Origin: an uncultured Gemmatimonadales bacterium | GTDB taxonomy: Bacteria; Gemmatimonadota; Gemmatimonadetes; Gemmatimonadales; GWC2-71-9 | Assembly: GCA_963795085.1 (NCBI GenBank) | Contig: CAWCFX010000006.1 | Location: 328,888-392,887 of the forward strand | Direction: 5' to 3' | Length of the DNA stretch: 64,000 nucleotides | Part shown: piece by piece, positions 13,620 through 64,000 of the stretch | Numbering within the stretch: the first letter of the stretch is position 1 | Layout: each line of letters starts with the position of its first letter | Notes under the pieces: generated by a model | Database searches by the model: none | What the model was told of the DNA's origin: nothing | Seen by the model: the letters and a program-made list of their open reading frames with translations, nothing else | Translations under genes and position numbers: made by a program

Positions 13620-13682
13620 GTGCAGCGTGCAGAGTGCAGCGTGCAGCGTGCAGGGTGCAGAGTGCAGCGTGCAGCGTGCAGC
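13620..13682 (+). repeat. tandem heptamer array (GTGCAGN)x9
   Basis: Read directly: gtgcagc gtgcaga gtgcagc gtgcagc gtgcagg gtgcaga gtgcagc gtgcagc gtgcagc, starting 4 nt after the lipoprotein stop. Confidence 0.9.
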
Positions 13683-13712
13683 GTGGATCCAGGATAATGG
13701 GGGAGGGAACCA

Positions 13713-14378
13713 ATGTCTCGAGTATTTGTGTTTTCCGCGTCGGCGGTGGTGCTGGCTGGGGTTTTTCTGCTGACCCGGCCCGGCGCCGGCACGCCGGGGG
13801 TGCCGGACAGTGTGGCTACGGGGGACACCCTGGACCTCTTGATCGCCCAGCGCAGCAAGGGATCGCCGGCGGCACCGATCGCGGTGTTCGAGATGTCCGA
13901 TTTCCAATGCCCTTTCTGCCGCCGGCATGCGCTGGAGACCTTTCCCGACCTGGACCGGCGCTATATCCAGACCGGCAAGGTCCGGTGGACCTTCGTCAAC
14001 TTTCCCATCCCCGAGATTCACCCCAATGCTACGGCCGCGGCGGAGTTCAGCATGTGCGCCGCGAAGATTGGCAAGTTCTGGCCGGTGCACGACCTGATTT
14101 TTGAGCACCAGGATGCCTGGAAGTCGCTGGGAGACCCGGGGCCCTTCCTCATCGGGCTGGCTGACTCGGCCGGCATCCGGCGGGGGGATATCCTGCCCTG
14201 CCTGGAGAATGGAGAAACGCGGGAATTGGTCCGGACCGAGGCGGAGGAGGTGGCGCGGGTGGGGATTCAGAGCACCCCCACCTTCGTGATCGAAGGGAAA
14301 CTGCTCCGCGGCGCGGCGCCGCTGGAGGTCTTTACCGCGATCTTTGATTCGATCTACGCGGCCCGGACCGGGGACTGA
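13713..14378 (+). CDS. DsbA-family thiol:disulfide oxidoreductase (thioredoxin fold)
   Basis: N-terminal TM/signal segment and a CPFC active site in the context FEMSDFQCPFCRRH; 221 aa. Confidence 0.8.
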   Translation: MSRVFVFSASAVVLAGVFLLTRPGAGTPGVPDSVATGDTLDLLIAQRSKGSPAAPIAVFEMSDFQCPFCRRHALETFPDLDRRYIQTGKVRWTFVNFPIPEIHPNATAAAEFSMCAAKIGKFWPVHDLIFEHQDAWKSLGDPGPFLIGLADSAGIRRGDILPCLENGETRELVRTEAEEVARVGIQSTPTFVIEGKLLRGAAPLEVFTAIFDSIYAARTGD

Positions 14379-14381
14379 CGC

Positions 14382-14627
14382 TCAGCTGGGACGTTCTTCG
14401 TGAACCAGGTGACTGCGCTGCTCGATCATCAGTTCAAGACCCGCCACGATCACCGAGCACAGCTGCGCCTGGGTTACGCCGCCACTGATGGAAAGAAACT
14501 CATCCAGGGGACGGCCCGCCCGCAGGTGCCCCACCAGGCTGGCGATGGGGATACGGGTGCCCCGGATGACTGGAATGCCGTCGATGATTCCTGATGTCCG
14601 CAGGTTGGTGAGTTCGTCCTGTGTCAT
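14382..14627 (-). CDS. DUF433 domain protein
   Basis: GIPVIRGTRIPIASLVGHLRAGRPLDEFL is the DUF433 core. Start taken at ATG 14627, preceded by GGAGG 7 nt upstream; the listed ORF extends to 14675. Confidence 0.7.
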   Translation of the reverse strand: MTQDELTNLRTSGIIDGIPVIRGTRIPIASLVGHLRAGRPLDEFLSISGGVTQAQLCSVIVAGLELMIEQRSHLVHEERPS

Positions 14628-14731
14628 AGCGCGCCTCCGCCAGTCGGGTATGCCGGTGACCGGGTTCCCCTGCAATAGGGGGCACCGGACCCGTCATGGC
14701 AAGACCGTGGCGGCGGGGGGCCGCCGTGGCG

Positions 14732-15490
14732 TCATCGCAGGGATAGAAACACGTCGTACAGCGCGTGAGTCCAGGCGGCGATGCCGAACCCGCGCAGCAG
14801 GTAGAGCCCGCTGAACAGCACCCCCGCGATAGCCCGGAAGGTGAAGGAGTTGAGCTCCAGCGGGTCGCCGTAGGGGCCGATATAGTGAAACGCCGAGAAG
14901 ACCAGCGCGCCCACCACCGTCGCGACGATGCCCGCCACCACCGGTTTCCAGCCCAGCAGCAATCCCGCCCTGGCCAGCGCCGCTACCAGCAGGACCCGGA
15001 ACAGGAGTTCCTCGTAGAGTCCCGCCCCCAGGGAGATCATCAACTGCGTCGGCAGGTTCATCCGCTCGATCGCGGTCTGGGACGCCACAGTATAGAGCGT
15101 GCCGTGCAGCAGCAGGGAGGTCAGCGACGCCGCCACAAAGCCGAAGAGCAGGGCGTAGATGCTGGACTCCGCCAGCATGCCGAGGAAGAGCCGGGGCGAC
15201 AGTTCCCGGCCCGCGCGCTTCCAGTCCCGGTAGGCCAGCACCAGCAGCGTCCCTACCAGGAGAACTCCGAACGCCACGACACCCCGCCGGCCACCCATGG
15301 CGATGAACACGCTCTTCATCAGCACGTCGGCCCCGTTCCGAACGCCGGCGATGGCGTCGCCCGAGAGCGCGAAGGCGAGCACCTCGTAGAGCAGGAGCAG
15401 GGGGATGGCGAAGAGGAGACTGTACCGGGGGGCCCGGGTGAGGGACCAGTAACGGGGAGCGGGAGGCATTGATGGAGGATAAGGGGGCAA
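14732..15490 (-). CDS. CPBP family intramembrane glutamic endopeptidase (CAAX protease/Abi)
   Basis: Multi-TM protein with EELLFR and FSAFH motifs. The start is either TTG 15490 or ATG 15469. Confidence 0.8.
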   Translation of the reverse strand: MPPYPPSMPPAPRYWSLTRAPRYSLLFAIPLLLLYEVLAFALSGDAIAGVRNGADVLMKSVFIAMGGRRGVVAFGVLLVGTLLVLAYRDWKRAGRELSPRLFLGMLAESSIYALLFGFVAASLTSLLLHGTLYTVASQTAIERMNLPTQLMISLGAGLYEELLFRVLLVAALARAGLLLGWKPVVAGIVATVVGALVFSAFHYIGPYGDPLELNSFTFRAIAGVLFSGLYLLRGFGIAAWTHALYDVFLSLR

Positions 15491-15512
15491 GGGGGCACGC
15501 GGGCAAGGGGCC
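15481..15512 (+). repeat. short array of octamer AAGGGGGC (about 4 degenerate units)
   Basis: aagggggc aagggggc acgcgggc aaggggcc. Same unit family as 37594-37609 and 56862-56925. Confidence 0.6.
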
Positions 15513-15599
15513 CGCAGCCCGTGGGTCTGGGGCTAGGCTTTTCGCCGATTGATCTCCTCGCCCGAATCTGGTACTTTCTCTGCGAAGTCAGATTTCTGC

Positions 15600-15785
15600 C
15601 CTATGTTCCACCTTTTGCGAAGGAGGTGATCCATTGTCTAGTGAGAGTTGCATCGCAGGCTCGAATCGGGCAAACGGTCGCCTGGTAACGCGCTAACCGA
15701 TACGAAGCGCAATCGAGAGCGACGCGTTTTCGAGCTCGATGCCAACAGAAGGCGCCATTCACCTCCGGGTGGGTGGCGCCTTTCA
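15600..15785 (+). ncRNA. candidate structured leader or small RNA: perfect anti-SD complement, 20-codon mini-ORF and terminal hairpin; identity unknown
   Basis: Lower-GC pocket. AAGGAGGTGATCC at 15620-15632 is a 13-nt perfect complement of the 16S 3' tail. TTG at 15634 opens a 20-codon ORF (to TAA 15694-15696). Nested stems: GTCGC/GCGAC and GCGCT/AGCGC. A 9-bp stem AAGGCGCCA...TGGCGCCTT at 15749-15782 is followed by TC. Confidence 0.25.
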
Positions 15786-15844
15786 CTTCCCCCCAGCCAA
15801 CCGGCCCCCTTGCCCCCACTTCCCGTCCCGGCCACCATTCCCCC

Positions 15845-17140
15845 ATGCGCCCCTCGTTGCTCTACCGTGCCGGCCTGGCGCTCTCCCGGCCGCTGATCCC
15901 GCTGGCCGGGCTGCTGAGCGCCAAGATCGCACGGGGCCACCGGGCCCGGGCCGGGGCGCTTGGGCGGATGGAGACATGGGGCCGCACCCAGCGCGACCCG
16001 TCTCGCCCCCTGGTCTGGTTTCATGCCCCCTCGGTGGGCGAGGGACTGCAGGCGCGCAGCGTCCTGAGCCGGGTCCGGCTGCGGCATCCCGAGTGGCAGA
16101 CGGTGTACACCCATTTCAGCCCCTCGGCCGAGCGATTCGCCGAGGGCATCGGCGCGGACCTCGCCGATTACCTGCCCTACGACGGCATGTCCGCCGCCCG
16201 CCGCCTGCTGGAGTCGCTGCGGCCCACCGTCCTGGTGTTCACCAAGCTCGACCTGTGGCCGGAACTCGCCACCGCCGCCCGGAACCGCGGGGTGAAGGTG
16301 GTGCTCGTCGCGGGCACCGTGCGGCCGAAAAGCAGCCGGCTGCGCTGGCCGGCCCGGCGGCTCATCCGGCCCGGGTATCGAGCGCTCGATGCGGCCCTGG
16401 CCATCGCGGAGGCCGATGCCAAACGGCTGGTGACGCTGGGGGTGCCGTCCGGGGCGGTGAAAGTGGTGGGCGACCCCCGCTTCGACAGCGTCCTCGACGT
16501 GGTCCGGTCGGTCCCCCCCGATGACCCGATGAAACGGTTCGGGAGAGATGCCGTGACCCTGGTCGCCGGCTCGACCTGGCCGGGCGATGAGGCCGTCCTC
16601 CTCGATGCCTATGCCCGGCTCCGGGTGCACCGGCCGGATGCGCGCCTCATCCTGGTCCCTCACGAGCCGACCACCGCTCACCTGAGCGGGATCGACCGCA
16701 TGGCCAACCGGGCCGGCCTGCCGGCACCGGTACGGTTGAGCTCGGCGGGCGGACCGGTCCCCTTCCTGGTGGTGGACCAGGTCGGATCCCTGGCCCGCCT
16801 CTATGGCGGCGGGGCGATGGCATACGTGGGCGGCGGGTTCCACGGCCAGGGGCTCCATTCGGTGCTGGAACCCTCGGCGTGGGGCATTCCCTCGGTGTTC
16901 GGCCCGCGATGGACGGAAAGCCGGGATGCTTCGCTACTGCTGGAAGCCGGTGGGGCGGAAGCGCTGGCGGAACTGGGGAACTACGAAGCGGCGGAGGCCC
17001 TGCAGGCCCTCTGGGAGGACTGGATCATCAATGAGGTCCGGCGCAAGGCCCAGGGCCGGAAAGCGCTGGCGGTGGTGCAGAGCGGCGCCGGTGCCGCCGA
17101 CCGCTCCGCCGACCTGATCGAGGAGGTCATGCGCCACTAA
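15845..17140 (+). CDS. waaA: 3-deoxy-D-manno-octulosonic acid (Kdo) transferase
   Basis: LVWFHAPSVGEGLQA and overall WaaA/KdtA architecture. Start chosen at ATG 15845 (MRPSLLYRAG); the listed ORF starts at 15773. Confidence 0.9.
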   Translation: MRPSLLYRAGLALSRPLIPLAGLLSAKIARGHRARAGALGRMETWGRTQRDPSRPLVWFHAPSVGEGLQARSVLSRVRLRHPEWQTVYTHFSPSAERFAEGIGADLADYLPYDGMSAARRLLESLRPTVLVFTKLDLWPELATAARNRGVKVVLVAGTVRPKSSRLRWPARRLIRPGYRALDAALAIAEADAKRLVTLGVPSGAVKVVGDPRFDSVLDVVRSVPPDDPMKRFGRDAVTLVAGSTWPGDEAVLLDAYARLRVHRPDARLILVPHEPTTAHLSGIDRMANRAGLPAPVRLSSAGGPVPFLVVDQVGSLARLYGGGAMAYVGGGFHGQGLHSVLEPSAWGIPSVFGPRWTESRDASLLLEAGGAEALAELGNYEAAEALQALWEDWIINEVRRKAQGRKALAVVQSGAGAADRSADLIEEVMRH

Positions 17141-17150
17141 CCCCCCTCAG

Positions 17151-17178
17151 TTCTCACCTCTCACTTCTCACTGCTCAC
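17151..17178 (+). repeat. heptamer array (NNCTCAC)x4, the reverse complement of the GTGAGNN family
   Basis: ttctcac ctctcac ttctcac tgctcac, lying between the convergent stops of waaA and the lipoprotein gene. Confidence 0.7.
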
Positions 17179-17565
17179 CTACTGCACTGCGACTCCCTCG
17201 ATCGACACGCTCCTCGGTACCACCAATCCCGCCGTCAGCGCCGTGATCAGGAGGTCGCTCCACCGGCTGCGGATCCTGATCCGTACGTCGGCCAGCGCCG
17301 ACCGGCCGACCAGCTGCGAGGCCAGGATCCTGTCCACCGCGGGCTTCTTCAGACTGGCCAGGCCCCAGAGTCCGAACACGGCGTGGGTATTGACGGTGAA
17401 GGCCTCGCCCACGGGACGCTGCCCCGCCGTTGAGGAGAGCGTCACCGGGACGCCTAACGATGTGGCATCAATGGTGGTCGAACAACCGCCCAGCAGCAGG
17501 GTCGCGGCCAGGTACAGCGCAGGGGCCGGAGAGCTGGTGCTTCCGGCCCGGAAGAGGCGTCGCAT
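17179..17565 (-). CDS. small lipoprotein (tentatively Bor-family-like)
   Basis: Internal ATG 17565 gives MRRLFRAGSTSSPAPALYLAATLLLGGC|S (lipobox); 128 aa. The tail FGLWGL...LITALTAGLVVPRSVSIEG resembles Bor lipoproteins (from memory). The upstream part of the listed 271-aa ORF overlaps the next gene. Confidence 0.55.
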   Translation of the reverse strand: MRRLFRAGSTSSPAPALYLAATLLLGGCSTTIDATSLGVPVTLSSTAGQRPVGEAFTVNTHAVFGLWGLASLKKPAVDRILASQLVGRSALADVRIRIRSRWSDLLITALTAGLVVPRSVSIEGVAVQ

Positions 17566-17576
17566 GGAGTCCAGGG

Positions 17577-18221
17577 TCAGAGTCCGGGAAGGTTGAGGCC
17601 GTAATGCACGCCGATGCCAAAGACGCTGACGCTGCTGCCCTCGGACCTGACAACATCGTAGGCGGCATGAAAGCCCAGCCCGCTCAGCAGGTTCAGTTCG
17701 ACCCCGCCACTGATTCCGAATTCGGAATCCGTCTCGGCGTCGATCCCGGTGCCCGACACACGGGCGATATCGATGCGCGGGGCAATCCAGGGCTTGATCC
17801 CGATGAGGGTCGTGGGGATCCGTGCCGAGAAGCTCACCCCGATGGGGAACCGCCAGAGGGAGAGGTCGGAGATCTTGGTCCGGGAGGCTCCCGCCTGGGC
17901 CGTCACCGCGAAGGGGATGAGGGGTCCCCCAAAGAGCTTGAGATTGGCGGTGCCCCCGACAGAGGTCAGGCCGTCGAAGCCATCGGGCGTCCACCGCGAC
18001 ACGCTGGCCGTCACGCCCAGCGGGCCCAGGCCCACCTTGCCTGTTGCGCCGAACGCCGTGCCGCCGCCCGCCTCGTCGTTAGGAAACCCGACGTCACCAG
18101 CGATGGTGAGGCCGGTCGAGACCCCGCTGTTGATGACCGGGAGCCCTGGATTCTGGGCCCGGGCGGTGACGCTGTATCCCAGGACCAGCGCACCAAGGAC
18201 GACGAGGTGGGAACGACCCAT
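17577..18221 (-). CDS. outer-membrane beta-barrel protein (OmpA-like barrel/porin family)
   Basis: Signal peptide ending ARAQN, alternating beta-strand pattern, and the aromatic-containing C-terminal strand GIGVHYGLNLPGL. Confidence 0.7.
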   Translation of the reverse strand: MGRSHLVVLGALVLGYSVTARAQNPGLPVINSGVSTGLTIAGDVGFPNDEAGGGTAFGATGKVGLGPLGVTASVSRWTPDGFDGLTSVGGTANLKLFGGPLIPFAVTAQAGASRTKISDLSLWRFPIGVSFSARIPTTLIGIKPWIAPRIDIARVSGTGIDAETDSEFGISGGVELNLLSGLGFHAAYDVVRSEGSSVSVFGIGVHYGLNLPGL

Positions 18222-18261
18222 GCTACCTCCGGGAGGATAGGGAATTGGCTGGGGGAATGTA

Positions 18262-18450
18262 AACGATTGAGGGAATTGAGGGAATGTTGAAATTGAGGGA
18301 ATTGAGGGAATGGGGAAATTGAGGGAATTGAGGGAATGGGGGAATTGAGGGAATTGAGGGAATGGGGGAATTGAGGGAATTGAGGGAATTGGGGTAGTTT
18401 CAATTCCAACATTCCCTCAATTCCCCCATTCCCTCATTTATTCCAACCTT
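18262..18450 (+). repeat. tandem approx. 10-mer array (GGGAATTGAG family) followed by inverted copies; forms a long imperfect hairpin
   Basis: Forward units attgagggaa/tgggg run from 18266 to about 18390, then a loop, then ttccctcaat-type units at 18411-18450. Confidence 0.9.
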
Positions 18451-18461
18451 CCCTCAATTTA

Positions 18462-19068
18462 CTACCTCGTAAAGCTCACCCCCAGGCTGATCCCGTCGTA
18501 GTCGCCCAGGCCGGCCCCCAGCCGGGCATCGAGCCGGGGGCTGAACTGGATGTCAACGCCCAGTCCGAGGCCGAACTGGATGTCGTCCTGGGTGTCCCCG
18601 AAGGTCGGAACCAGCACCGGCTCGAAGTACGGGACGAAGGTAGTCTTGGTGCCTTCCAGGTTGATCCGGCGTCCCAGGCTGAACCCGATGGGAATCAAAC
18701 CGATGGAGGCGTCGCTGGCGAATACGCCGCCGATTCCTATGGTGAGGGCGCCGTCGAGCGGGAAGACTTCGGTGGCCCGGAGCACCCGCATCCGGACATC
18801 GATGCCGGTGATGAAGAAGGTGGTGCCGGGCCCGTTGGGGGTATCGGCATCGTTGTCGCCGATCCCGGCCCGAAAGCCGAAGTCGAGGGGACCCCGCCCG
18901 GCCCGATACATCCCTTCGAGGGTGAACCCGGGACCGGGGTCGGTGAAGAATATCCCCAGCTCCGTGGTGCGGAATGCCTTGACCGGCGCAAGAAAAACCG
19001 GCGTGCCGGTTGTCTGAGCCTGAGCGCCAGACGCGGCCACGCCGGTCATGATAAGCAATAGACTGAGC

Positions 19069-19079
<11 letters not shown>
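18462..19079 (-). CDS. outer-membrane beta-barrel protein
   Basis: Signal peptide MLRRLSLLLIMTGVAASGAQAQ, Gly-rich alternating strands, and the C-terminal strand ISLGVSFTR. Its ATG (19079) lies 11 nt inside the atpC 3' end. Confidence 0.7.
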
Positions 19080-23288
<4,209 letters not shown>

Positions 23289-23329
23289 AGGTATGCGGTG
23301 ACGGTTCAGAAGAGGGTTGAGTGCCTAGC

Positions 23330-23347
23330 TTGTGAAAAATATCACAA
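23330..23347. promoter_or_regulatory. perfect CRP/FNR-type palindrome TTGTGA-N6-TCACAA upstream of atpA
   Basis: ttgtgaaaaatatcacaa is an 18-bp perfect palindrome in an AT-rich pocket about 45 nt upstream of the atpA ATG. On the minus strand it overlaps a candidate promoter, TTGCGG (23364-23359)-17 nt-TATTTT (23341-23336). Confidence 0.45.
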
Positions 23348-23467
23348 TCTAGAACGGACCGCAACAGAGGGCTACAAGATACACCGCCTCCCCCGGGGAA
23401 GCGACCGCCACGCTCCGGCCGGCATAGTCAGCGTAACCCCATATCTGATCGGGAGATGAGCGGAAGA

Positions 23468-24235
23468 CTAACCCCGGCTTCTGGTGTTGCCACGGGCGAA
23501 CAGGCCCAGCACGCCCCGGGGCCCGGCCCGGGGCAGTTGCTGGGCACCCATTCCCGCGACCCGACGGGCGGTCTCGCTCAGGTGGCTCGAGGAAGCGAAG
23601 CCGAGGATCCGGGCCACACCGCCAGCGGAGTAGCCGGGATTGCCGAGCAGTTGCGCGGCGCAGGCGATCCGGGTCAGGTCGATCACCCGCTTCAGATTGG
23701 GTGCTCCGCCGGCGCCGAACTGCCGGGACAGGTGCTCCCGGCTCACGTTGAAGCGGCGAGCGACGTCCTCGGTGCGGGCCGGCTCCGCGACGTTCACGAG
23801 CAGGTACTCCCACACGTCGCGCTGCAACGGTTCCGAGAGGCGCAGCACCCGGGGCGCATCGGCCATCAGCCGGCGCCGCTCGGCGCTGAGGGAAACCCGG
23901 CCGATCATGCCGCCCAGGGCCGCATCGTCCACCCCCTCGACCGCCACGGCGACACCGGCCCGGCAGCAGCGCTCCAGCACCTCGCCGTCATCGGGCCGGA
24001 AGGGCGCGAACATGAGGCGCGGGATGCCCGGAAACCGGGTGAACAGGCTGGCCATCTCGGAGGCCTGCGCCACCCGGGGGGCGGTCACGATCGCCTCGAC
24101 CACCCGGGTCTCCAGCAGCCGGGCGAGTCCGGCGGGCCCCCGGCAGGATGCGACCCGGGGGCCTTCGCGGGGAACCGCCCGCCGCAGCGCGACAATGCCC
24201 CGGCGGCTCTCCAGGAGCGCGGCGATGACGGCCAC
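23468..24235 (-). CDS. AraC/XylS family transcriptional regulator
   Basis: C-terminal double HTH (DVARRFNVSREHLSRQF... ARILGFASSSHLSETARR). The N-terminal approx. 120 aa look receiver-like but degenerate. Confidence 0.75.
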   Translation of the reverse strand: MAVIAALLESRRGIVALRRAVPREGPRVASCRGPAGLARLLETRVVEAIVTAPRVAQASEMASLFTRFPGIPRLMFAPFRPDDGEVLERCCRAGVAVAVEGVDDAALGGMIGRVSLSAERRRLMADAPRVLRLSEPLQRDVWEYLLVNVAEPARTEDVARRFNVSREHLSRQFGAGGAPNLKRVIDLTRIACAAQLLGNPGYSAGGVARILGFASSSHLSETARRVAGMGAQQLPRAGPRGVLGLFARGNTRSRG

Positions 24236-24237
24236 CG

Positions 24238-24744
24238 CTACTCCAGGCGGATTACGGGAGTGGAATCGGGCTCCGGCCGGGGACGGCCGGCGCCCACCGC
24301 GACCAGGGTGCGGGCCATTTCGCCGGCCCGGCGCAGCACCCCCCGGGCATTGTCATAGCTCAGGGTCTGCACCGCCTCCTCGTAGGTGCACCAGGTGCAT
24401 TCGGTGATGCCCTCATCCTGCTGCGGCAGCGGGTCTCCCGCCGGGCTCTCGACCAGGAAAAAATGACAGTACTTGTGAATGAACTTGCCGCGGAACCGGA
24501 AATACCAATCGATGATCCGGATGGGCCCCTGGACCGTCAACTGCTCCAGCCCGGTCTCCTCCCGCGTCTCCCGCAGGGCCGCCTCGGCCGGCGTTTCGTC
24601 CGCTTCGAGGTGACCCTTGGGGAATCCCCAGTTGCCGTAGGAGTCCCGGATCAGGAGAAAGCGCACGATCCCCTCCGGCGACCGCCGGAAGACGATCCCG
24701 CCGGCGCTGACCTCCCTGACCGCTTTCCGTTTCGCCATCAACAC
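24238..24744 (-). CDS. NUDIX hydrolase
   Basis: Nudix box GFPKGHLEADETPAEAALRETREETGL. Confidence 0.85.
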   Translation of the reverse strand: MLMAKRKAVREVSAGGIVFRRSPEGIVRFLLIRDSYGNWGFPKGHLEADETPAEAALRETREETGLEQLTVQGPIRIIDWYFRFRGKFIHKYCHFFLVESPAGDPLPQQDEGITECTWCTYEEAVQTLSYDNARGVLRRAGEMARTLVAVGAGRPRPEPDSTPVIRLE

Positions 24745-24750
24745 CCTCTA

Positions 24751-24778
24751 CAGTGGCAGTGAGCAGTGAGCGGTGAGC
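24751..24778 (+). repeat. heptamer array (AGTGAGC family, about 4 units)
   Basis: cagtggc agtgagc agtgagc ggtgagc, in the spacer between the mlaD stop and the NUDIX start. Confidence 0.7.
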
Positions 24779-24848
24779 GGGCTGAAGGACAGTGCCGTCT
24801 CGGGGAGTGCCCGCCGCGAGGCCGGTTGGCCGCTCATGCCTGCCGCAG

Positions 24849-25856
24849 CTAAAAAACCGAGAACTTGAAATACTTCCGCGGGTTCGCCTGGATGTCGGTC
24901 AGCAGCTGCCGCATCTGGATGACGGTGGCCGTGGTTTCCCGGTACAGCGTCGAGTCCGCGGTCAGGAGGCCCAGGGTGCCCCGCCCGGACTGCATCCGCC
25001 GCAACAGCGTGTCGGCGGTCGTGAGTACCCGGATGAGGCTGGCTTCGTTGGACCGCACGGCCGCCATGAGGGCGCGCAGGTCGGCGGACGCCTGGCGGAA
25101 ATCGCCGGTGGCGTCCCGTCCGGTATTGAGAATGTCGGCCAGCTGGCCGGCGCTGGTGGCCGAATCCACCCGCGCCAGGGTGTTCTCGAGGCTGCGCGAA
25201 GCGCCGGTGAAATGCCCGCTGGACGTGGCGAGGTTGCCGGTGACCCGGTCCAGCCGGCCGGTCTGCTGGTGGGTGAACTCCTCGAGCTTGGCCACGGTCT
25301 GCGCGAAATCGCGGAGGGTGCCGCGCAGGTCCTGCACCGCGGCGGAGTCGAACGCGGTCTCTACCCGGTCGGCCAGTGCGGCGATGTCGCCGGCGATCCG
25401 GCCGGCCTGGGCCGTCAGTTGCCCCACGTCGGGCAGGGTCGCCCCGGGCCATTCCCCCCCGCCGGGGCCGGCGGCTTCGGCCAGCATCATCCGGAGCGAG
25501 GGATCCTCCTGGGGGATATCCCCGGAGACGATACCGGCCTCCCATTCCCCGAACAGGCTGCTGGACGCCGCGATCACGACGGGCCGCGCGGGCAGCTCCA
25601 CGTCGGTGCGTACCCGGAGATCGGCTTCCACCCAGTTATCGCTGGCCAGCCGGATCTGCTGGACTCGGCCGACCTTGACGCCGCGGAGGGTGACCGGGGC
25701 ACCCACGCCGAGGCCGCCAACGGTGCGGAACCGGGCGGTATATACCTGCTCCAGCTTCCCGATGCTGGCGTCGCTCAGCCAGAGCGCCGCGGCGATGACG
25801 CCGGCCAGAGCCAGCAGCACCGCGAGGCCGACGAGAAACTCGTTCTTATGCCTCAT
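24849..25856 (-). CDS. mlaD: MlaD/MCE family substrate-binding protein
   Basis: N-terminal TM segment plus MCE domain (FRTVGGLGVGAPVTLRGVKVGRV) and a long helical C-terminus. ATGA overlap with mlaF. Confidence 0.85.
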   Translation of the reverse strand: MRHKNEFLVGLAVLLALAGVIAAALWLSDASIGKLEQVYTARFRTVGGLGVGAPVTLRGVKVGRVQQIRLASDNWVEADLRVRTDVELPARPVVIAASSSLFGEWEAGIVSGDIPQEDPSLRMMLAEAAGPGGGEWPGATLPDVGQLTAQAGRIAGDIAALADRVETAFDSAAVQDLRGTLRDFAQTVAKLEEFTHQQTGRLDRVTGNLATSSGHFTGASRSLENTLARVDSATSAGQLADILNTGRDATGDFRQASADLRALMAAVRSNEASLIRVLTTADTLLRRMQSGRGTLGLLTADSTLYRETTATVIQMRQLLTDIQANPRKYFKFSVF

Positions 25857-26650
25857 GGGATAGCGCGCCGCATCGGAACCTCCGAAGGATCAATGGCGAA
25901 CGGCTGATGGCTCATGGCTGCACCGGGTTCCGGCCGGCCTTCGAGAAACTGCCGCACCACCGGGTCCGCCGACTCCTGCATCTCGGATACCGTCCCCTCC
26001 TGCCGGATGGTGCCCTCGAAGAGCATGGCCATCCGGTTGCCGACGGTGTAGGCGCTGCGGAGATCATGGGTGACCACGACACCGGTGACCCCGAGCTCGC
26101 CCTGGGTACGGAGGATCAGCTGATCGATGATGGCCGAGGTGACCGGGTCGAGACCGGTGGTCGGCTCGTCGTAGAGAATGTAGCGGGGGGACATGGCAAT
26201 CGCCCGGGCGATGCCCACCCGTTTTCGCATGCCGCCGGAGAGCTCGGCGGGATACCGTTCCTCCGATCCCTGGAGATCCACCATCCGGAGGCTGTCGCGT
26301 ACCCGCTGCTCGATGGTATCGGGGTCGAGCTTCCGCTTGCGGAGTCCCAGCCGGAGATTGTCGGCCACGGTCATTGAATCGAAGAGGGCGGCGAACTGAA
26401 AGACAAAGCCGATGTCGCCCCGGAGCGCCACCAGCTCGTCGCGGGAGCGGTCGTCCACCGCCCGCTCGTCCACCAGGACCCGGCCCGCATCCGGCGAGAG
26501 CAGACCGCAGATCAGCTTGAGCGCCACGCTCTTCCCGGTCCCGGAATAGCCGAGGATGACCGTGGTCTGCCCATCGGGGATCACCAGGTCCAGCCCGCGG
26601 AGCACTTCCCGGTCGCCGAATCCCTTGTGGACGGCCTCAAGGCGGATCAC
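25853..26650 (-). CDS. mlaF: ABC transporter ATP-binding protein (MlaF-like)
   Basis: Walker A GYSGTGKS, signature LSGGMRKR, Walker B ILYDEPT. GTG start 26650 forms a GTGA overlap with the mlaE stop; the listed ORF runs to 26698. Confidence 0.9.
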   Translation of the reverse strand: MIRLEAVHKGFGDREVLRGLDLVIPDGQTTVILGYSGTGKSVALKLICGLLSPDAGRVLVDERAVDDRSRDELVALRGDIGFVFQFAALFDSMTVADNLRLGLRKRKLDPDTIEQRVRDSLRMVDLQGSEERYPAELSGGMRKRVGIARAIAMSPRYILYDEPTTGLDPVTSAIIDQLILRTQGELGVTGVVVTHDLRSAYTVGNRMAMLFEGTIRQEGTVSEMQESADPVVRQFLEGRPEPGAAMSHQPFAIDPSEVPMRRAIP

Positions 26651-27408
26651 AGCAGCACCACGGCCCAGAAGGCATCGAGCACCAGGATGGCCATGCACCC
26701 CAGGACCACCGCTTTGGTGGTGCCCCGGCCCACCCCTTCGGCACCGCCCTCGGTCCGAAGCCCCATGATGCAGCCCATCAGGGTGACGGCCCCGCCGAAA
26801 CTGGCCGCCTTGACCAGGCCAAACCAGATGTCCTTGAACTGGTAGAAAAGCCGGATGCCCTTGGCGAACTCGGGGTTGGACAGGTCCAGCAGGTTGACGG
26901 CGGTGATCCAGCCGGCGGCGATCCCGGTGAGCATCGCGAAGGCGGTGATGATGGGGAACATCAGCACCCCCGCCAGCACCCGGGGCACCACGAGATAGGA
27001 GTGGGGGTTGAAGGCCAGGGTCTCGAGGGCGTCGATCTGCTCGGTCACCTTCATGGTGCCGACTTCCGCGGCGATATTGGCACCGACCCGGCCGGCGAGG
27101 GCCAGCCCGGTGAGCACCGGCCCCAGTTCCATCATGATGGTCTTACCGACCAGGGCGCCGACGAACGACCGGGGCACCGCGCCAGTGAAGATGTAGCTGG
27201 ACAGCAGGGCGAGGACGATGCCGGTGAAGACGGCGATGAACAGCGCGATGGGGATGGAATCCACGCCCAGGCGCCTCATCTGGCCGATGAGCAGAGGACC
27301 CCAGGTAGAGATGTCGGAAGCAGCGCGAGCGGAATCCGCCGCGGCCCGCCCAATCCGGCGCACTGCTCCGGACAGGCCGCTCGGCTGCCGAGCCAGGGCG
27401 TACGTCAC
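26647..27408 (-). CDS. mlaE: ABC transporter permease (MlaE-like)
   Basis: 253 aa, multi-TM, typical MlaE/Ttg2B sequence (TEQIDALETLAFNP). Confidence 0.9.
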   Translation of the reverse strand: MTYALARQPSGLSGAVRRIGRAAADSARAASDISTWGPLLIGQMRRLGVDSIPIALFIAVFTGIVLALLSSYIFTGAVPRSFVGALVGKTIMMELGPVLTGLALAGRVGANIAAEVGTMKVTEQIDALETLAFNPHSYLVVPRVLAGVLMFPIITAFAMLTGIAAGWITAVNLLDLSNPEFAKGIRLFYQFKDIWFGLVKAASFGGAVTLMGCIMGLRTEGGAEGVGRGTTKAVVLGCMAILVLDAFWAVVLL

Positions 27409-27444
27409 GGATCAAAGGTACGGATTGGAGAGAGGAGTGTAAAG

Positions 27445-27525
27445 AGTACTGAGTACTGAGTGCTGAGTGCTGAGTACTGAGCGCTGAGTTCACTACAATG
27501 CGCGCTGCACTCTGCACTCTGCACT
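27445..27525 (+). repeat. two adjacent heptamer arrays: (AGTRCTG)x6 at 27445-27486 and (CTGCACT)x3 at 27505-27525
   Basis: Read directly. The second unit is the reverse complement of the 13620 array unit. Located between the mlaE start and the sigma-factor stop. Confidence 0.9.
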
Positions 27526-27530
27526 CCCCC

Positions 27531-27716
27531 TCAGGCCGCGAAGCTGGCCAGGGCCCGGCCGACCTCCCCTTCGCGGAGGCGGCGGAGGGCACGGTCGCGG
27601 AGCTGCCGCACCCGTTCCCGGGTCACCCCCAGCATCCCGCCGATCTCTTCGAGCGTGTGCTCCCGCCCCCCGTCCAGCCCGAAATAGAGCCGGAGAACCT
27701 TGGCATCGCGGGGGGG
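27531..27716 (-). CDS. sigma-70 region 4 fragment, out of frame with the upstream ORF (same gene)
   Basis: Own translation: ...RDAKVLRLYFGLDGGREHTLEEIGGMLGVTRERVRQLRDRALRRLREGEVGRALASFAA*. This is a canonical region 4.2 HTH in the frame one nt off from ORF 27623..28609. Confidence 0.65.
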   Translation of the reverse strand, partial: PPRDAKVLRLYFGLDGGREHTLEEIGGMLGVTRERVRQLRDRALRRLREGEVGRALASFAA

Positions 27717-28555
27717 AGGGTGGTCAGGGCGTGCCGGATCTCATCGGACAGGAAGCGGTCCATTGCCGCGTCTTCGACGTTGCCCTGCCCTTCGGCGACG
27801 AACCGGTCGATCATGGAACGGTCGCCCTCGGGGTCGAGCGGCGCATCCAGCCGGATCTCCGCGGTATTGAGCTGGGCCAGCGACTGGACCACGTCCACCG
27901 CCAGCCCGGTGGAGTTGGCGATCTCCTCTGGGGTGGGCTCCCGTCGGAGTTCTTGCCGAAGGGCTTCCGCGGCGCGCACGATGCGGGAGAGGTCGGCGGT
28001 GCGGTTGAGCGGCACCCGGACGGTACGGCCCTGCCGGGCCAGCGAGGCGAGGATGGCCTGCCGGATCCACCAGACAGCGTACGAAATGAACTTCACCCCC
28101 ATGTCCGGGTCGAACTTCCGGGCGGCGGTCAGCAGCCCCACGTTGCCCTCGCCGATCAGGTCGATCAGGGCCAATCCGCGGTTCTGGTACTTCTTGGCCA
28201 CCGAGATCACGAACCGGAGGTTACGCTTGACCAACTCCTGCATGGCCTCTTCGTCACCGGCCCGCACCTTGCGCGCGATCGCGATTTCCTGCGGCTGGGA
28301 GAGCAGCGGGGTCTTGCTGACCTCGAAGAGGTACTGGTCCAGGATGTCCTTATCGGCCTCGTACACCCCCAGCGACCTGGCGGTCTCGCGCTTGCGCGCA
28401 CGCGGCTTCCGGGCCGGGCCGGACTCCTGGAGGATTTCGTCCAGGGTGAGGTCATCGGCATACCGGAACGGGGCGGCCGCCGAACCGGCGGGTGCCGGGT
28501 CGGGAACCACGGATTTCGGGGGGACAGGGGTGTCAGCCGGTTTCTTTTTTTTCAT
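27623..28555 (-). CDS. RNA polymerase sigma-70 family factor (RpoD/SigA-like), regions 1.2-4.1; reading frame breaks at a C7 run
   Basis: Regions 2-3 are clear (NLRFVISVAKKYQNRGLALIDLIGEGNVGLLTAARKFD, FISYAVWWIRQAI). Start chosen at ATG 28555 (MKKKKPAD). The tail after ...ALTTLPP is nonsense in this frame. Confidence 0.85.
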   Translation of the reverse strand: MKKKKPADTPVPPKSVVPDPAPAGSAAAPFRYADDLTLDEILQESGPARKPRARKRETARSLGVYEADKDILDQYLFEVSKTPLLSQPQEIAIARKVRAGDEEAMQELVKRNLRFVISVAKKYQNRGLALIDLIGEGNVGLLTAARKFDPDMGVKFISYAVWWIRQAILASLARQGRTVRVPLNRTADLSRIVRAAEALRQELRREPTPEEIANSTGLAVDVVQSLAQLNTAEIRLDAPLDPEGDRSMIDRFVAEGQGNVEDAAMDRFLSDEIRHALTTLPPAMPRFSGSISGWTGGGSTRSKRSAGCWG

Positions 28556-28612
28556 GTATCCAGGGGAATCCTCCAGGCCCGCAAAACATCCTGCAAAAAA
28601 GCGGCCCAATGC

Positions 28613-28641
28613 TTGACACTCCTGCGGGCGAGGACTAGCTT
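28613..28641 (+). promoter_or_regulatory. candidate sigma-70 promoter for the tRNA cluster (TTGACA-17-TAGCTT)
   Basis: TTGACA at 28613-18, a 17-nt spacer, then TAGCTT at 28636-41, about 48 nt upstream of tRNA-Ala. Confidence 0.4.
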
Positions 28642-29200: not shown

Positions 29201-29204
29201 TTTG

Positions 29205-56724: not shown

Positions 56725-56861
56725 AGTGGGAAAGTGGGTCAGGGGGGAAGTGGGACAGTGGGTCAGTGGGTCAGTGGGATCAGTGGGTCAGTGGGTCAGT
56801 GGGTCAGTGGGTCAGTGGGTCAGTGGGTCAGTGGGACAGTGGGTCAGTGGGTCAGTGGGTC
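56725..56861 (+). repeat. (AGTGGGTC) octamer array of about 17 units, same family as 37611-37748
   Basis: Read directly, with a few variant units (agtgggaa, agtgggac, one 9-mer). Begins about 33 nt upstream of the DUF4956 start codon. Confidence 0.95.
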
Positions 56862-56925
56862 AGTGGGGCAAGGGGGCAAGGGGGCCAAGGGGGCAAGGGC
56901 GCCAAGGGGGCCAAGGGGGCAAGAG
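56862..56925 (+). repeat. (AAGGGGGC / CAAGGGGGC) array of about 7 units
   Basis: agtggggc aagggggc aagggggcc aagggggc aagggcgcc aagggggcc aagggggc aagag. Confidence 0.9.
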
Positions 56926-56970
56926 TGGCAGCAGCACAGGGGGATACTGGGTCAGGCTGTCAGGGTGCTC

Positions 56971-57052
56971 CCGCCCTGTTCCTACCGCCCTGTTCCTACC
57001 GCCCTGTTTCTACCGCCCTTCTTACCGCCCAGTTCTCCCGCCCTGTTCTTTA
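56971..57052 (+). repeat. 12-15-mer array (CCGCCCTGTTCCTA family, 6 units) ending on the stop codon of the downstream minus-strand gene
   Basis: ccgccctgttccta x2, ccgccctgtttcta, ccgcccttctta, ccgcccagttctc, ccgccctgttcttta. On the minus strand five of the six units begin with TAG or TAA (the ccgcccagttctc unit does not). Confidence 0.9.
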
Positions 57053-59377: not shown

Positions 59378-59571
59378 GGAAACACGGGGTCAGGGATATC
59401 GACTGGCCAGGGGCGCCGGCAGTCCTTGGACCGCTTACGAACGGGGGCCACACCCGGTTTCGGGCCGCCGGGATGCGTTTCCATTTCGGCATCCGGCACC
59501 CAAATCCTGAATCCCGGCGGCGGGGCCATGCCCGGGAGTGGCGGACGCGGTTGAGGGGACCGAGGCACCAG

Positions 59572-59676
59572 CCCTCAATCCCCTCAATTCCACAATTCCC
59601 TCAATTCCCTCAATTCCCTCAATTCCCTCAATTCCCTCAATTCCCTCAATTCCCTCAATTCCCTCAATTCCTAATT
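59572..59676 (+). repeat. (CCCTCAATT) 9-mer array of about 11 units, abutting the stop of the upstream minus-strand gene
   Basis: Read directly. Preceded by an inverted partial copy (gttgagggg at 59551). Same family as 18262 and 29399. Confidence 0.95.
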
Positions 59677-62195: not shown

Positions 62196-62337
62196 CGGCT
62201 GAGAAAGTGGCAGGGAGGATCGGCACAAGGTTACAGGAAAATCCCCGATTGCAACAGGGGCCGTACCCATGGGCCCAGTCCCCAAGTACATTCCATCCCA
62301 TTGCCGGCTCCCGTCTTCCATAGTGGAGGTTGATCCC

Positions 62338-62868
62338 ATGTCCAGCCTGATGCCGATCAATCTGAAGGGCTTTATCAACGACCATCGCGACCTCCTGAAG
62401 CCCCCGGTGGGCAACAAGATGGTCTGGCAGAACGCCGAGTTCATGGTGATGGTGGTCGGCGGCCCCAATCAGCGGAAAGACTTTCACATCGAGGACGGCG
62501 AGGAGTTCTTCTACCAGGTCGAAGGCGATATCGTCCTCCGGATCATCGAGGACGGCAAGGTGCGGGAGATCCCGATCCGGGAAGGCGAGATGTTCCTGCT
62601 CCCCGCCGGCATCCCCCACTCGCCCCAGCGCCCCGCCAACACGGTCGGCCTGGTGATCGAGCGGCAGCGGGTGGAGGGAGAAAAGGACCACCTCCGCTGG
62701 TTCTGCGAGAACTGCGGCGAAGTCCTCCACGATGACGCCTTCCAGCTGGAAGACCTGGGCAAGCAGCTCAAGCCCATTATCGAAAACTTCTACCAGAGCG
62801 AGACCCTCCGCACCTGCCGGAACTGCGGCCACGTGATGACCGTGCCGGCCCCGGCGGCGAAGAAGTGA
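62338..62868 (+). CDS. nbaC: 3-hydroxyanthranilate 3,4-dioxygenase
   Basis: Start ATG 62338 after GGAGG. Cupin core DFHIEDGEEFFYQVEGDIVLRI...LLPAGIPHSP and a C-terminal rubredoxin-like CENCG...CRNCG site. Confidence 0.9.
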   Translation: MSSLMPINLKGFINDHRDLLKPPVGNKMVWQNAEFMVMVVGGPNQRKDFHIEDGEEFFYQVEGDIVLRIIEDGKVREIPIREGEMFLLPAGIPHSPQRPANTVGLVIERQRVEGEKDHLRWFCENCGEVLHDDAFQLEDLGKQLKPIIENFYQSETLRTCRNCGHVMTVPAPAAKK

Positions 62869-62876
62869 CGCCCGCC

Positions 62877-62950
62877 ATTTCAGATTGGAGATTTCAGATT
62901 TCAGATTGGACCACCTTCAGTCTGAAATCTGAAATCTAGAATCTGAAATC
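62877..62950 (+). repeat. ATTTCAG heptamer units arranged as an inverted repeat (long hairpin) in the HAAO-ACMSD spacer
   Basis: atttcagattggagatttcagatttcagattgg / accacc / ttcagtctgaaatctgaaatctagaatctgaaatcc. Confidence 0.9.
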
Positions 62951-62953
62951 CCC

Positions 62954-63970
62954 ATGCCCCTGAAGATCGACATCCACACCCACATTCTCCCCCACTCTCT
63001 CCCCGACCTGAGAGAGCGGTTCGGTTATGGGGGATTCATCCAGCTGGAGCACCACGAGCCCTGCCGGGCCCGGATGCTGATCGACGGCAAGTTCTTCCGC
63101 GAGATCGGCGACAACTGCTGGAACCCGGCCGCCCGGATCGCCGAGTGCGACCAGGACGGCGTCTCGGTGCAGGCGCTGTCCACCGTGCCCGTCATGTTCA
63201 GCTACTGGGCCAAGCCGGAACACGCGCACGATCTCTCCCAGATTCTCAACGACGACATCGCCAGGACGGTCCAGGCGCACCCCCGCCGGTTCGTGGGCCT
63301 CGGCACCCTGCCGATGCAGGCCCCCGACCTCGCGGTCCGGGAGCTGGAGCGCTGCGTGAAGCAACTGGGCTTTCCCGGGGTCCAGATCGGCAGCCACGTC
63401 AACCAGTGGAACCTCGACGACCCGGTGCTGTTCCCCGTCTTCGAGGCCGCCCAGGAACTGAACGCGGCGGTCTTCGTCCATCCCTGGGACATGATGGGCA
63501 AGGAGCGGATGCCGAAGTACTGGCTGCCCTGGCTGGTCGGCATGCCGGCCGAGACCACGCTGGCCATCTGCTCGGTGATCTTCGGCGGGGTGCTGGAGCG
63601 GCTGCCCCGCCTCAAGATCTGCTTCGCCCACGGCGGCGGGAACTTCGCCGGGACCATCGGCCGCATCGAACACGGTTTCCATTCCCGCCCCGACCTGGTC
63701 GCCACCGAGAACCCGGTCAACCCCCGGGCCTACCTGGGCCGCTTCTACGTGGACTCGCTGGTGCATGACAACGACGCCCTCCGCCAGCTGATCAAGCTCA
63801 TGTCGCCGGAACGGATCGCCCTCGGCTCCGACTACCCCTTCCCCCTGGGCGAGCAACCCGCGGGCAAGCTGATCGAGTCCATGTACGACCTGGACGCCGG
63901 GGTGCGGGACCGGCTGCTCGCCGGGACGGCGCTGGAGTTCCTGGGGCTGGAGCGGGAGAGGTTTGAGTGA
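62954..63970 (+). CDS. nbaD: 2-amino-3-carboxymuconate-6-semialdehyde decarboxylase (amidohydrolase 2 family)
   Basis: MPLKIDIHTHILP (HxH metal site) and ...FVHPWDM...CFAHGGG...DYPFPLGE, typical of ACMSD. Confidence 0.9.
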   Translation: MPLKIDIHTHILPHSLPDLRERFGYGGFIQLEHHEPCRARMLIDGKFFREIGDNCWNPAARIAECDQDGVSVQALSTVPVMFSYWAKPEHAHDLSQILNDDIARTVQAHPRRFVGLGTLPMQAPDLAVRELERCVKQLGFPGVQIGSHVNQWNLDDPVLFPVFEAAQELNAAVFVHPWDMMGKERMPKYWLPWLVGMPAETTLAICSVIFGGVLERLPRLKICFAHGGGNFAGTIGRIEHGFHSRPDLVATENPVNPRAYLGRFYVDSLVHDNDALRQLIKLMSPERIALGSDYPFPLGEQPAGKLIESMYDLDAGVRDRLLAGTALEFLGLERERFE

Positions 63971-63974
63971 GAAC

Positions 63975-64000
63975 AGTGGGTCAGTGGGTCAGTGGGTCAG
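63975..64000 (+). repeat. (AGTGGGTC) octamer array, truncated by the window end
   Basis: agtgggtc agtgggtc agtgggtc ag begins 5 nt after the ACMSD stop. Confidence 0.85.

Follow-up and report, generated by a model that had tools for sequence, protein, structure and literature searches.

What builds the short-period tandem repeats that occupy intergenic spacers in the chromosome of an uncultured Gemmatimonadales bacterium, and what could they be doing there? The question is raised by a stretch of 64,000 nucleotides (GenBank assembly GCA_963795085.1, contig CAWCFX010000006.1, positions 328,888 to 392,887; hereafter the window), for which an earlier note, made from the sequence alone, had described a window-wide system of such arrays. 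Our reading, which we hold at roughly even odds, is that they are slippage-generated, self-homogenising repeats of the LSSR/STRR type (long simple sequence repeats and short tandemly repeated repetitive sequences, respectively), which elaborate intergenic stem-loops in Gemmatimonadota. Short intergenic repeats with units of 5-11 nt have been known since 1990, were surveyed in 2007 and were studied again, in Xanthomonas, Nostoc, and Beggiatoaceae, in 2015. Here, there are three handles on them. In a conserved tRNA operon, one spacer is always a strong hairpin, made of different repeat units in each lineage; several positions that bear an ordinary or REP-like (repetitive extragenic palindromic) hairpin in relatives bear an array in its place in one strain; and one octamer array follows a strong rule of orientation relative to the transcript across several phyla.

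Tandem arrays in the non-coding DNA of the window

Using Tandem Repeats Finder (TRF), beside which the array sequences were inspected directly, we detected 15 arrays with a period of 7-14 nt and at least three copies in the 64-kb window, as against a mean of 0.17 arrays and a maximum of two in 30 dinucleotide-preserving shuffles of it. The top TRF score was 267 in the window and 47 in the shuffles. About 16 array loci are described below, the count of 15 being that of the arrays with the said period and copy number. Every array listed in the earlier note was found in its place by TRF and by direct reading, and the coverage of about 1.2 kb that had been estimated there is correct (1208 bp in total). 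All 15 arrays are non-coding, though 88.6% of the window is coding according to a crude gene call based on GC content at third codon positions (GC3), and non-coding DNA makes up about 11%. The array positions within this fraction are not random, and the array starts cluster a few nucleotides past stop codons or the 3' ends of tRNAs. The strictly non-coding placement claimed before was borne out. The units had also been described as less GC-rich than the genome around them, which is true of 14 of the 16 array loci (window GC 0.67) and untrue of the other two.

Likewise, the claim that the same units stand at several loci was upheld for five families. The GTGGGTCA family is found at three loci (37611, 56725, and 63974), as are the GGGGCAAG family (15481, 37594, and 56865) and the GGGAATTGA family (18266, 29397, and 59572), while AGTACTG is found at two (27444 and 29117), and GTGCAGN at 13620 has its reverse complement at 27505. 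This recurrence of units at separate loci is beyond chance. Copies of one family have only the repeat unit in common, as the loops and flanks differ, and no target-site duplications were found at the array copies when the window loci were compared. The heptamer families in the window are GTGCAGN, AGTACTG, CAGTGAG/TCTCACC, and ATTTCAG.

The window arrays belong to a known kind of repeat, the LSSR/STRR kind, in a host phylum that is new. Heterocystous cyanobacteria reportedly carry STRR heptamers, a description that goes back to Mazel et al. in 1990, and the analogy with them drawn in the earlier note is apt. Several families of tandem heptamers lie in the intergenic DNA of a single genome in both cases, and the copy number varies (STRR have served as strain markers). 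The cyanobacterial units CCCCAGT, TTGGTCA, and CAACAGT come from another phylum, whereas the window genome is GC-rich; no tandem copies of these units were found in the related and distant loci L001-L196 that we examined, and none are among the TRF units of the window.

A closer frame is given by Mrazek et al. (2007), who, as summarised in two later papers (PMC4679880, PMC4692102), defined LSSR as repeats with units of 5-11 nt, mostly heptamers, found them mostly in large GC-rich genomes of non-pathogens, such as Burkholderia and Xanthomonas, and proposed slippage as their cause. As in these summaries, the window arrays are made of head-to-tail units of 5-11 nt (the 14-nt family lies outside that range), are longer than chance allows, have heptamers in a prominent place, and occur sporadically across taxa, with units that are not a multiple of three concentrated in non-coding DNA. 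They differ in that Gemmatimonadota, so far as the summaries tell, were not in the 2007 survey, in that at least eight unit families are found within 64 kb, and in that many arrays are the arms of hairpins at positionally conserved sites. We found no published description of such arrays in Gemmatimonadota.

Two other identities were considered. A CRISPR array was rejected, as the units are 7-14 nt long, strictly head-to-tail and without spacers, while CRISPR arrays have direct repeats of 23-50 nt split by unique spacers of similar length. In Rfam, the only window matches at gathering score were eight tRNAs, and no family was matched at the arrays.

Array hairpins and an oriented octamer beyond the window

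Long hairpins made of forward and inverted copies had been proposed for several loci, and folding against shuffles confirmed them. Three have a z-score below -9, namely those at 18262-18461 (free energy, ΔG, of -79.9 and z of -9.4), 29114-29204 (ΔG -48.5, z -9.6), and 62869-62953 (ΔG -42.1, z about -9.9 to -10.5), and a weaker one lies at 27440-27530 (z about -4.4; -4.35 on the - strand). Altogether, a long stem-loop has an array as one arm or as both at about a third to half of the loci. The G-rich strand of (GGGTCAGT)n pairs with itself through G-U pairs (z -13), and the C-rich strand of the array at 37594-37748 is without structure; in folding, the array set is heterogeneous. Classical terminators, composed of a hairpin and a T-run, are not enriched at 13000-32999 of the window (7 found, with 9.9 expected from shuffles), which leaves room for other structures at RNA 3' ends, and the organism probably ends its transcripts by other means.

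In the related Gemmatimonadota DNA that was examined, 558 kb in total, arrays are common at about one per 5 kb. None of the window units recurs in it, and the unit repertoire is therefore specific to each lineage. Among 80 Gemmatimonadota metagenome loci (458 kb), which were picked by their sigma-70 protein and not by repeats, we counted 83 intergenic arrays of 7-9-nt units, 50 of which (60%) have an inverted partner within 300 nt. Array hairpins taken as examples from relatives are near-perfect, reach -58 to -139 kcal/mol, and lie directly past stop codons. Variant units tend to take matching places on the two sides of a hairpin, with 71 mismatches in register as against 112 at a shift of one unit (25 hairpins). 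In co-directional spacers, the arrays start at a median of 4.5 nt past the upstream stop and end 36 nt ahead of the next start; 19 of 32 lie within 10 nt of a stop, compared with 5 of 32 within 10 nt of a start.

The position of such hairpins is kept while their sequence is replaced, and this is most plainly seen in the tRNA operon. There, the order Ala-Gly-Met-Val-Arg beside the sigma gene is conserved across Gemmatimonadota, and all 41 distinct variants have a strong hairpin for a Met-Val spacer (median length 94 nt, median ΔG -58, median z -6.4). The 7-9-nt units that make up its stems differ from lineage to lineage (AGTACTG in the window). For the neighbouring Ala-Gly and Gly-Met spacers, by comparison, z is only -0.1 and -0.7. 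A second case is the spacer between the 3-HAO and ACMSD genes, which we compared with the syntenic contigs of relatives (ACMSD 88-91% identical). In every lineage compared, it is a hairpin spanning the spacer. The version of the relatives (z -3.6 to -5.9) is a REP-like inverted repeat, GTCATTCCGAGC...GCTCGGGATGAC, and that of the window is made of ATTTCAG arrays. Downstream of the gene for a 183-residue protein, a plain GC hairpin is found in relative L113, hairpins of GGGATTG/CAATCCC repeats are found in L109 and L111, and CCCTCAATT in 11 copies is found in the window. The REP-like motif of the relatives, GCTCGGGATGAC, does not occur beyond chance in the 64-kb window, where array hairpins are found in its place.

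Arrays are also gained and change in length. In the relatives, the ACMSD and kynureninase genes abut or overlap, with no room for an array, and the GTGGGTCA array past the ACMSD stop in the window is therefore, by this comparison, a lineage-specific insertion inside the operon. Past the stop of the tryptophan dioxygenase gene, L109 has GGCAGCGG in 7.4 copies, whereas GCCAGACG is present there in 3.8 copies in L113 and in 7.8 copies in L114, with identical flanks. Copy number is thus polymorphic between near-identical relatives, and length variation of the slippage type, which the earlier note had raised, is seen among them.

The third handle comes from a scan of 185,579 species genomes with (GTGGGTCA)3, made with no control scan of that collection, which gave at least 108 loci. 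All further counts for this octamer are among the matches listed. Their hosts include Gemmatimonadaceae, Chloroflexota, Acidobacteriota, Actinomycetota (with finished Streptomyces genomes), Myxococcota, Verrucomicrobiota, Balneolaceae, Desulfohalobiaceae, and others, and two Chloroflexota genomes have at least ten or so loci each. Of 85 high-GC loci, 82 have the array outside coding sequence. Where the genes on both sides are co-directional, the sense strand is the C-rich one, TGACCCAC, at 41 of 47 loci, and the ratio was 34:8 (p = 7e-5) when the 60 nt to either side of the array were disregarded. By phylum, the bias is 7:1 in Gemmatimonadota, 14:0 in Actinomycetota, and 12:1 in Chloroflexota, and only three actinobacterial loci are mutually orthologous. 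Other arrays have no orientation bias (15:14 and 12:8). We considered stop codons in all frames as the cause of the orientation, though this is not general (7 versus 6). Nor could it be shown that GTGGGTCA is a universally favoured unit; viral contigs gave one match to it, three to a shuffled control, and one to GGGGCAAG. In genomes that carry GTGGGTCA, it has numerous further arrays of 7-9-nt units in its neighbourhood, which are often paired in inverted orientation, and a CAGT core is present in 28% of these arrays, versus 2% of unselected Gemmatimonadota arrays and 6% of shuffled units.

As a separate observation, an Anaerolineae metagenome-assembled genome (CHL10) has a GTGGGTCA array followed by a second array at seven or more loci (L013, L018, L032, L048, L051, L058, and L080). 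The units of the second array vary by locus (ACTGAAC, ACTGAAA, ACTGAAT, TTACTGA, and TACTGAT), and the two arrays can pair via TCAGT/ACTGA. This composite looks like a dispersed element that evolves in concert within each copy.

Rho utilisation (rut) tracts are stretches of C-rich, G-poor, and unstructured RNA, at least about 70 nt long, in an untranslated part of the transcript. Within the window, this composition and folding are found only at 56725-56923, on the - strand (the sense strand for the genes on both sides), with about 200 nt of C-rich, G-poor repeats (about 50% C and 10-18% G), and it is to that extent a candidate site of termination. As a model of the tract, (UGACCCAC)12 has a minimum free energy of 0, with 50% C and 12.5% G. 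Hence, (TGACCCAC)n may fit a Rho-loading tract or, as another possibility, the avoidance of a G-rich non-template strand.

The explanations weighed

On the reading that we prefer, replication slippage would multiply units of 7-9 nt (and one of 14 nt) in place, the units inside each array would be made uniform, and selection would keep the arrays out of coding sequence. For the lineage, arrays would be a way to build and rebuild the stem-loops that separate cistrons or tRNAs or stand where operons end, and these stem-loops would serve RNA 3'-end formation, processing, or protection. Across the phylum, such repeats would be what intergenic stem-loops are usually made of. The stems would grow like an accordion by unit duplication, with the structure of the spacer kept while its units are replaced. 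Long one-armed arrays (GTGGGTCA in 17-18 copies, CCCTCAATT in 11, and GTGCAGN in 9) are probably overgrowths of the same process, and (TGACCCAC)n would be an exception, in that across phyla its C-rich and unstructured strand is usually the sense strand that is transcribed. If either the hairpin or the Rho-tract reading is true, GC-rich bacteria make use of the arrays in ending or processing their transcripts.

A number of results weigh against this reading. Shuffles fold as well as do the arrays at 13620 (z -0.33 for 13620-13685), 59572, and 56860-57009. No T-run was found after the array hairpins, and a consensus terminator scan places no terminator at an array, so that we rejected intrinsic terminators as their identity. 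Sense and antisense strands fold equally well, both in the tRNA spacer (22 versus 17) and in spacers of protein genes (16 versus 15), and the sense strand of the tRNA spacer has no excess of G-U pairs (81 versus 68). The arrays are found in co-directional, divergent, and convergent spacers at 78/14.5/7%, with a background of 77/13/9%, which means that their placement is not restricted to 3' ends; neither enrichment in convergent spacers nor depletion in divergent ones was found for them. Local slippage alone leaves the re-use of a few units at dispersed loci, which share neither loop nor flank, unexplained, and the arrays of GTGGGTCA-carrying genomes resemble GTGGGTCA itself in their CAGT core (the 28% given above). 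Finally, the Rho idea fits only those arrays with a C-rich sense strand, as the array at 63974 has the opposite orientation and the other arrays are unbiased. The single coordinated system that the earlier note had proposed finds no support, either, as the families fold differently and only one of them is biased in orientation, and it is weakened further by the absence of the window units from the 558 kb of related DNA.

Of the alternatives, the one that survives best, though we regard it as unlikely, takes the arrays as a neutral by-product, namely the footprint of a high slippage rate that is tolerated where genes are unharmed. Hairpins, stop proximity, and positional conservation would then reflect spacers that are short and a region before the start codon that must stay free. 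Such a view has no difficulty with spacer types that match the background, with folding that lacks strand asymmetry, with several arrays that do not fold beyond shuffles, with a complete turnover of units between lineages, or with a copy number that varies between strains. It does not account for a Met-Val spacer that is a strong hairpin in 41 of 41 variants despite the replacement of its sequence, for the inverted partners of 60% of the intergenic arrays and the mirroring of variant units between arms, for the 41:6 orientation of (GTGGGTCA)n across phyla, or for the same units at several loci in one genome.

A joint claim of two linked ideas, accordion hairpins and a modular (TGACCCAC)n device that would serve as a Rho-loading terminator or against R-loops, is put forward as doubtful. 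Under the accordion idea, GC-rich phyla with little use of U-tract terminators would continually rebuild their intergenic hairpins by unit duplication, and the small unit repertoire of each genome would point to a trans-acting factor that generates or selects the units. Under the octamer idea, (TGACCCAC)n would have arisen or spread in at least five phyla (among the matches listed), nearly always with its C-rich and unstructured strand in the transcript.

It appears improbable that the arrays are G-quadruplex (G4) elements, formed by GGGTCAGT, GGGGCAAG, and GGGAATTGA, that modulate transcription or translation near gene ends in the manner of Xanthomonas GGGAATC. Rehm et al. (2015) reported intergenic arrays of GGGAATC in Xanthomonas, a GC-rich diderm, and of GGGGA(C/T)T in Nostoc (PMC4692102), and the remark in the earlier note that it knew of no description for such a diderm was therefore wrong. 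The Xanthomonas arrays form 70-75 convergent (inverted) pairs and lie near stop codons, for the most part where both neighbouring genes have one orientation; they vary in length and sequence between sister species while keeping their position, and GGGAATC and GGGGAYT arrays are transcribed on either strand and form G4 in vitro (PMC4692102). The window resembles this case in its GC-rich diderm host, in the intergenic placement near stops, in the frequent inverted pairs, and in the length variation between relatives, and GGGAATTGA and the GGGATTG of relatives resemble GGGAATC. The GGGNATC heptamer unit itself was not found in the window, the nearest being the 9-mer GGGAATTGA, with GGGATTG and CAATCCCT in relatives. 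In addition, the three largest families, of about eight in the window, each have a G-run of three or more per unit with loops of 3-6 nt, and the C-rich sense bias of (GTGGGTCA)n would fit the avoidance of a G-rich non-template strand. However, at least five families lack a canonical motif (GTGCAGN, AGTACTG, CAGTGAG, and ATTTCAG have no run of three G, and the runs of the 14-mer are 11 nt apart), as do most arrays of the relatives, and CCCTCAATT in its 11 copies has the G-rich strand in the transcript directly past a stop codon. Whereas the repeats of Rehm et al. have one dominant unit per genome, prefer four copies, and are depleted from divergent spacers, the window has many units, most of which lack a canonical G4 motif, the copy numbers of its three families with a G-run range from 2 to 18 (11-18 in the long arrays) with no peak at four, and the arrays of the window and its relatives are not depleted from divergent spacers.

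Arrays of binding sites for RNA- or DNA-binding factors, which would constitute a post-transcriptional regulon, are quite improbable. The idea was argued by MacGregor (2015) for TAACTGA repeats of marine Beggiatoaceae, cyanobacteria, and Bacteroidetes, which are strongly oriented and stand upstream of starts (PMC4679880). Like TAACTGA, (GTGGGTCA)n is a short, intergenic, and oriented unit found across distant phyla without an evident mechanism of transfer, and the ACTGA core is common to TAACTGA, to ACTGACCC (the reverse complement of GGGTCAGT), and to many of the co-occurring arrays. TAACTGA repeats, on the other hand, occur in 2-6 copies, in forward orientation, and directly upstream of starts, while the window arrays are longer and abut stops; no tandem copies of the TAACTGA unit were found in the DNA examined (window and L001-L196). 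Each genome does have its own repertoire of units, related to one another and re-used at dispersed loci without shared flanks, and one family is strongly oriented relative to the transcript, though eight or more unrelated units per genome would need many factors, most families follow no rule of orientation, the arrays abut stops rather than starts, the neighbours are unrelated housekeeping genes, and no candidate protein is at hand.

Non-autonomous elements of the MITE/REPIN kind (miniature inverted-repeat transposable elements and hairpin-forming REP doublets, respectively), spread by a transposase, would account for copies of one unit at so many places and for older hairpins having been replaced, yet we consider them very improbable. 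Here, the copies have the unit alone in common, with no loop, flanks, or target-site duplications, one-armed arrays are common, the 64 kb have no gene for a transposase, RAYT (REP-associated tyrosine transposase), or reverse transcriptase, and none of the 30 window proteins scanned has a transposase domain. The points that speak for such elements are the composite of a GTGGGTCA array and an ACTGAAx array at seven or more loci in the one Anaerolineae genome, the arrays that flank REP-like inverted repeats in some relatives (L088 and L150), and the window arrays that stand where relatives have REP-like elements. More generally, REP, BIME (bacterial interspersed mosaic element), and REPIN sequences, too, are stem-loops scattered over intergenic DNA, where they lie at the ends of operons or separate genes that are transcribed together. 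REP sequences have a conserved stretch of 20-40 nt and a RAYT transposase, whereas the window loci have a short unit alone in common, and REP/REPIN identity was rejected on account of the common loop or flank and the transposase domain that are missing from the 64-kb window.

That the arrays are contingency loci, in which a change of copy number would switch or tune adjacent genes (phase variation), is scarcely credible. Their copy number is polymorphic in relatives, and some lie 3-40 nt from start codons (62950/62954, 13685/13728, and 24751/24744), but the flanking genes are of the housekeeping sort (the end of the ATP synthase operon, the tRNA operon, MlaE, sigma-70, and the kynurenine pathway), and the arrays are outside reading frames and mostly past stop codons. 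For units this long, phase variation was deemed unlikely by Rehm et al. in 2015 (PMC4692102) and, as far as the summaries of it show, by Mrazek et al. in 2007.

An assembly or sequencing artefact, of which the breaking of short-read contigs at the arrays might be a sign, is ruled out, in that the arrays are internal to a window that comes from a long contig, a separate assembly reaches them, and hundreds of independent contigs, with finished Streptomyces genomes among them, have the same architecture. This also settles the concern, raised in the earlier note, that the arrays might be confined to contig ends. The separate assembly, a short-read (Logan) one of run ERR12037361, has three array-flanking genes unchanged, and its contigs go on for 32-52 nt beyond the stop codon and break just where the arrays begin, as would be expected of true repeats shared between loci. 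On the practical side, the arrays break short-read assemblies and offer ready-made strain markers.

The individual arrays and their surroundings

The window is ordinary Gemmatimonadota chromosome, and its gene content includes DnaE, the ATP synthase operon, MlaDE, a kdtA-like gene, a sigma-70 factor, a tRNA operon, and kynurenine-pathway genes. The ACMSD protein on record is unchanged on an 844-kb NCBI contig, and its nearest named relatives are Gemmatimonadota; the close relatives of the source are known from metagenome assemblies. In the following, each array was identified by TRF and from the sequence.

At 13620-13685 (+), the GTGCAGN heptamer (as GTGCAGC) is repeated 9.4 times, from 4 nt past the stop of a gene at 12609-13616 (+) to about 40 nt upstream of a DsbA-like gene. 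The octamer AAGGGGGC, of the GGGGCAAG family, is present in 3.8 copies at 15481-15510 (+), in the divergent spacer between a Rce1-like gene (-) and the kdtA-like gene (+). Past the stop of the latter at 17140, a 38-nt spacer is occupied by about four copies of the heptamer TCTCACC/CTCACTN (17146-17180, +), the reverse complement of the GTGAGNN family. The strong hairpin that follows consists of an arm of 14 copies of ATTGAGGGA, of the GGGAATTGA family, at 18266-18394 and an inverted arm of the TCAATTCCC type at 18400-18459, and it ends 3 nt from the stop (18462, -) of an outer-membrane protein gene, the last gene after atpAGDC. Four copies of CAGTGAG at 24751-24778 (+) lie between the stop of an MlaD-like gene and the start of a NUDIX gene, both on the - strand. 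GAGTACT in 6.6 copies (27444-27489) and CTGCACT in three (27505-27526) form two arrays that pair imperfectly, in a spacer bounded by the stop of sigma-70 (27623) and the start of MlaE (27408).

In the tRNA operon, the AGTACTG/CTCAGTA hairpin at 29117-29204 (+) fills the spacer between tRNA-Met and tRNA-Val, the nonamer CCTCAATTC, the reverse complement of GGGAATTGA, is present in 5.2 copies between tRNA-Arg(acg) and tRNA-Arg(tcg) (29397-29443, +), and a short array of ATTGCAG/ATTGGAG in 2.7 copies (29524-29542, +), a locus that we added to those listed before, lies directly past the last tRNA and resembles the ATTTCAG family. With respect to gene order, the window operon has tRNA-Arg(tcg) in sixth place. 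The operon, divergent from the sigma-70 gene, is in relatives directly followed by tRNA-Pro(cgg) and tRNA-Arg(ccg), which in the window are split from it by two hybrid histidine-kinase genes (tRNAs at 28688-29520, 33041-33114, and 37517-37590). The array at 37594-37748 (+), with two copies of GGGGCAAG and then 17 of GGGTCAGT, begins 4 nt past tRNA-Arg(ccg). It is adjoined at 37752-37800 by a plain GC-rich stem-loop (GAAGGTAGTGCCCCGG...CGGGGCATCTTGCCTTC), which is probably the terminator of this convergent spacer.

The array locus at 56725-56923 (+) is a fusion of AGTGGGTC in 17.8 copies (56725-56867) with GGGGCAAG in seven (56865-56923). Close to it, the 14-mer CCGCCCTGTTCCTA is repeated 5.8 times at 56971-57048 (+), up to 2 nt from the stop of a DUF5916 gene (57050, -). 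The nonamer CCCTCAATT, in 11.2 copies at 59572-59671 (+), ends 4 nt from the stop of the 183-residue protein gene (59675, -), and a lone inverse unit upstream (59551-59559) makes a short hairpin with it. Between the DUF5916 gene and this gene, relatives have a pair of genes for a histidine kinase and a LytTR response regulator (L109 4587-6520, L111 4644-6586, and L113 4693-6638), in place of which the window has a 297-nt spacer (59378-59674) holding the CCCTCAATT array.

At the kynurenine-pathway end, the ATTTCAG/TCTGAAA hairpin at 62877-62950 (+) occupies the spacer that runs from the 3-HAO stop (62868) to the ACMSD start (62954). It starts 9 nt past the former and ends 3 nt ahead of the latter, with no visible Shine-Dalgarno sequence before ACMSD. 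A hairpin in this position suggests a possible translational coupling of the two genes, in which initiation at ACMSD may depend on ribosomes that finish 3-HAO and open the stem. The octamer CAGTGGGT, in at least 3.4 copies at 63974-64000 (+), begins 4 nt past the ACMSD stop, has its G-rich strand as the sense strand, and runs into the end of the window.

In the spacers of relatives, the REP-like inverted repeat, also in the form GTCATYCCGAGC...GCTCGGGATGAC, is dispersed and sometimes has tandem arrays alongside (L109 9891-10000, L111 9882-10000, L113 9885-10000, and also L001, L088, L150, and L194). Lastly, two repeats of the window were set aside as coding, of which CCCGCC, which the earlier note did not list, is the one exception to the non-coding placement among the TRF arrays. 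Overlapping CCCGCC and 9-, 15-, and 27-nt repeats at 12012-12096 (CCCGCC at 12035-12095) belong to a Gly/Pro-rich region of low complexity inside a TPM-domain gene (11975-12982, -), and about 20 copies of CGG at 6825-6885, likewise a coding tract of low complexity, encode the Arg/Gly-rich C-terminal tail (RRRRRGRRGRGGGGGGGGGG) of a protein that ends at 6914.

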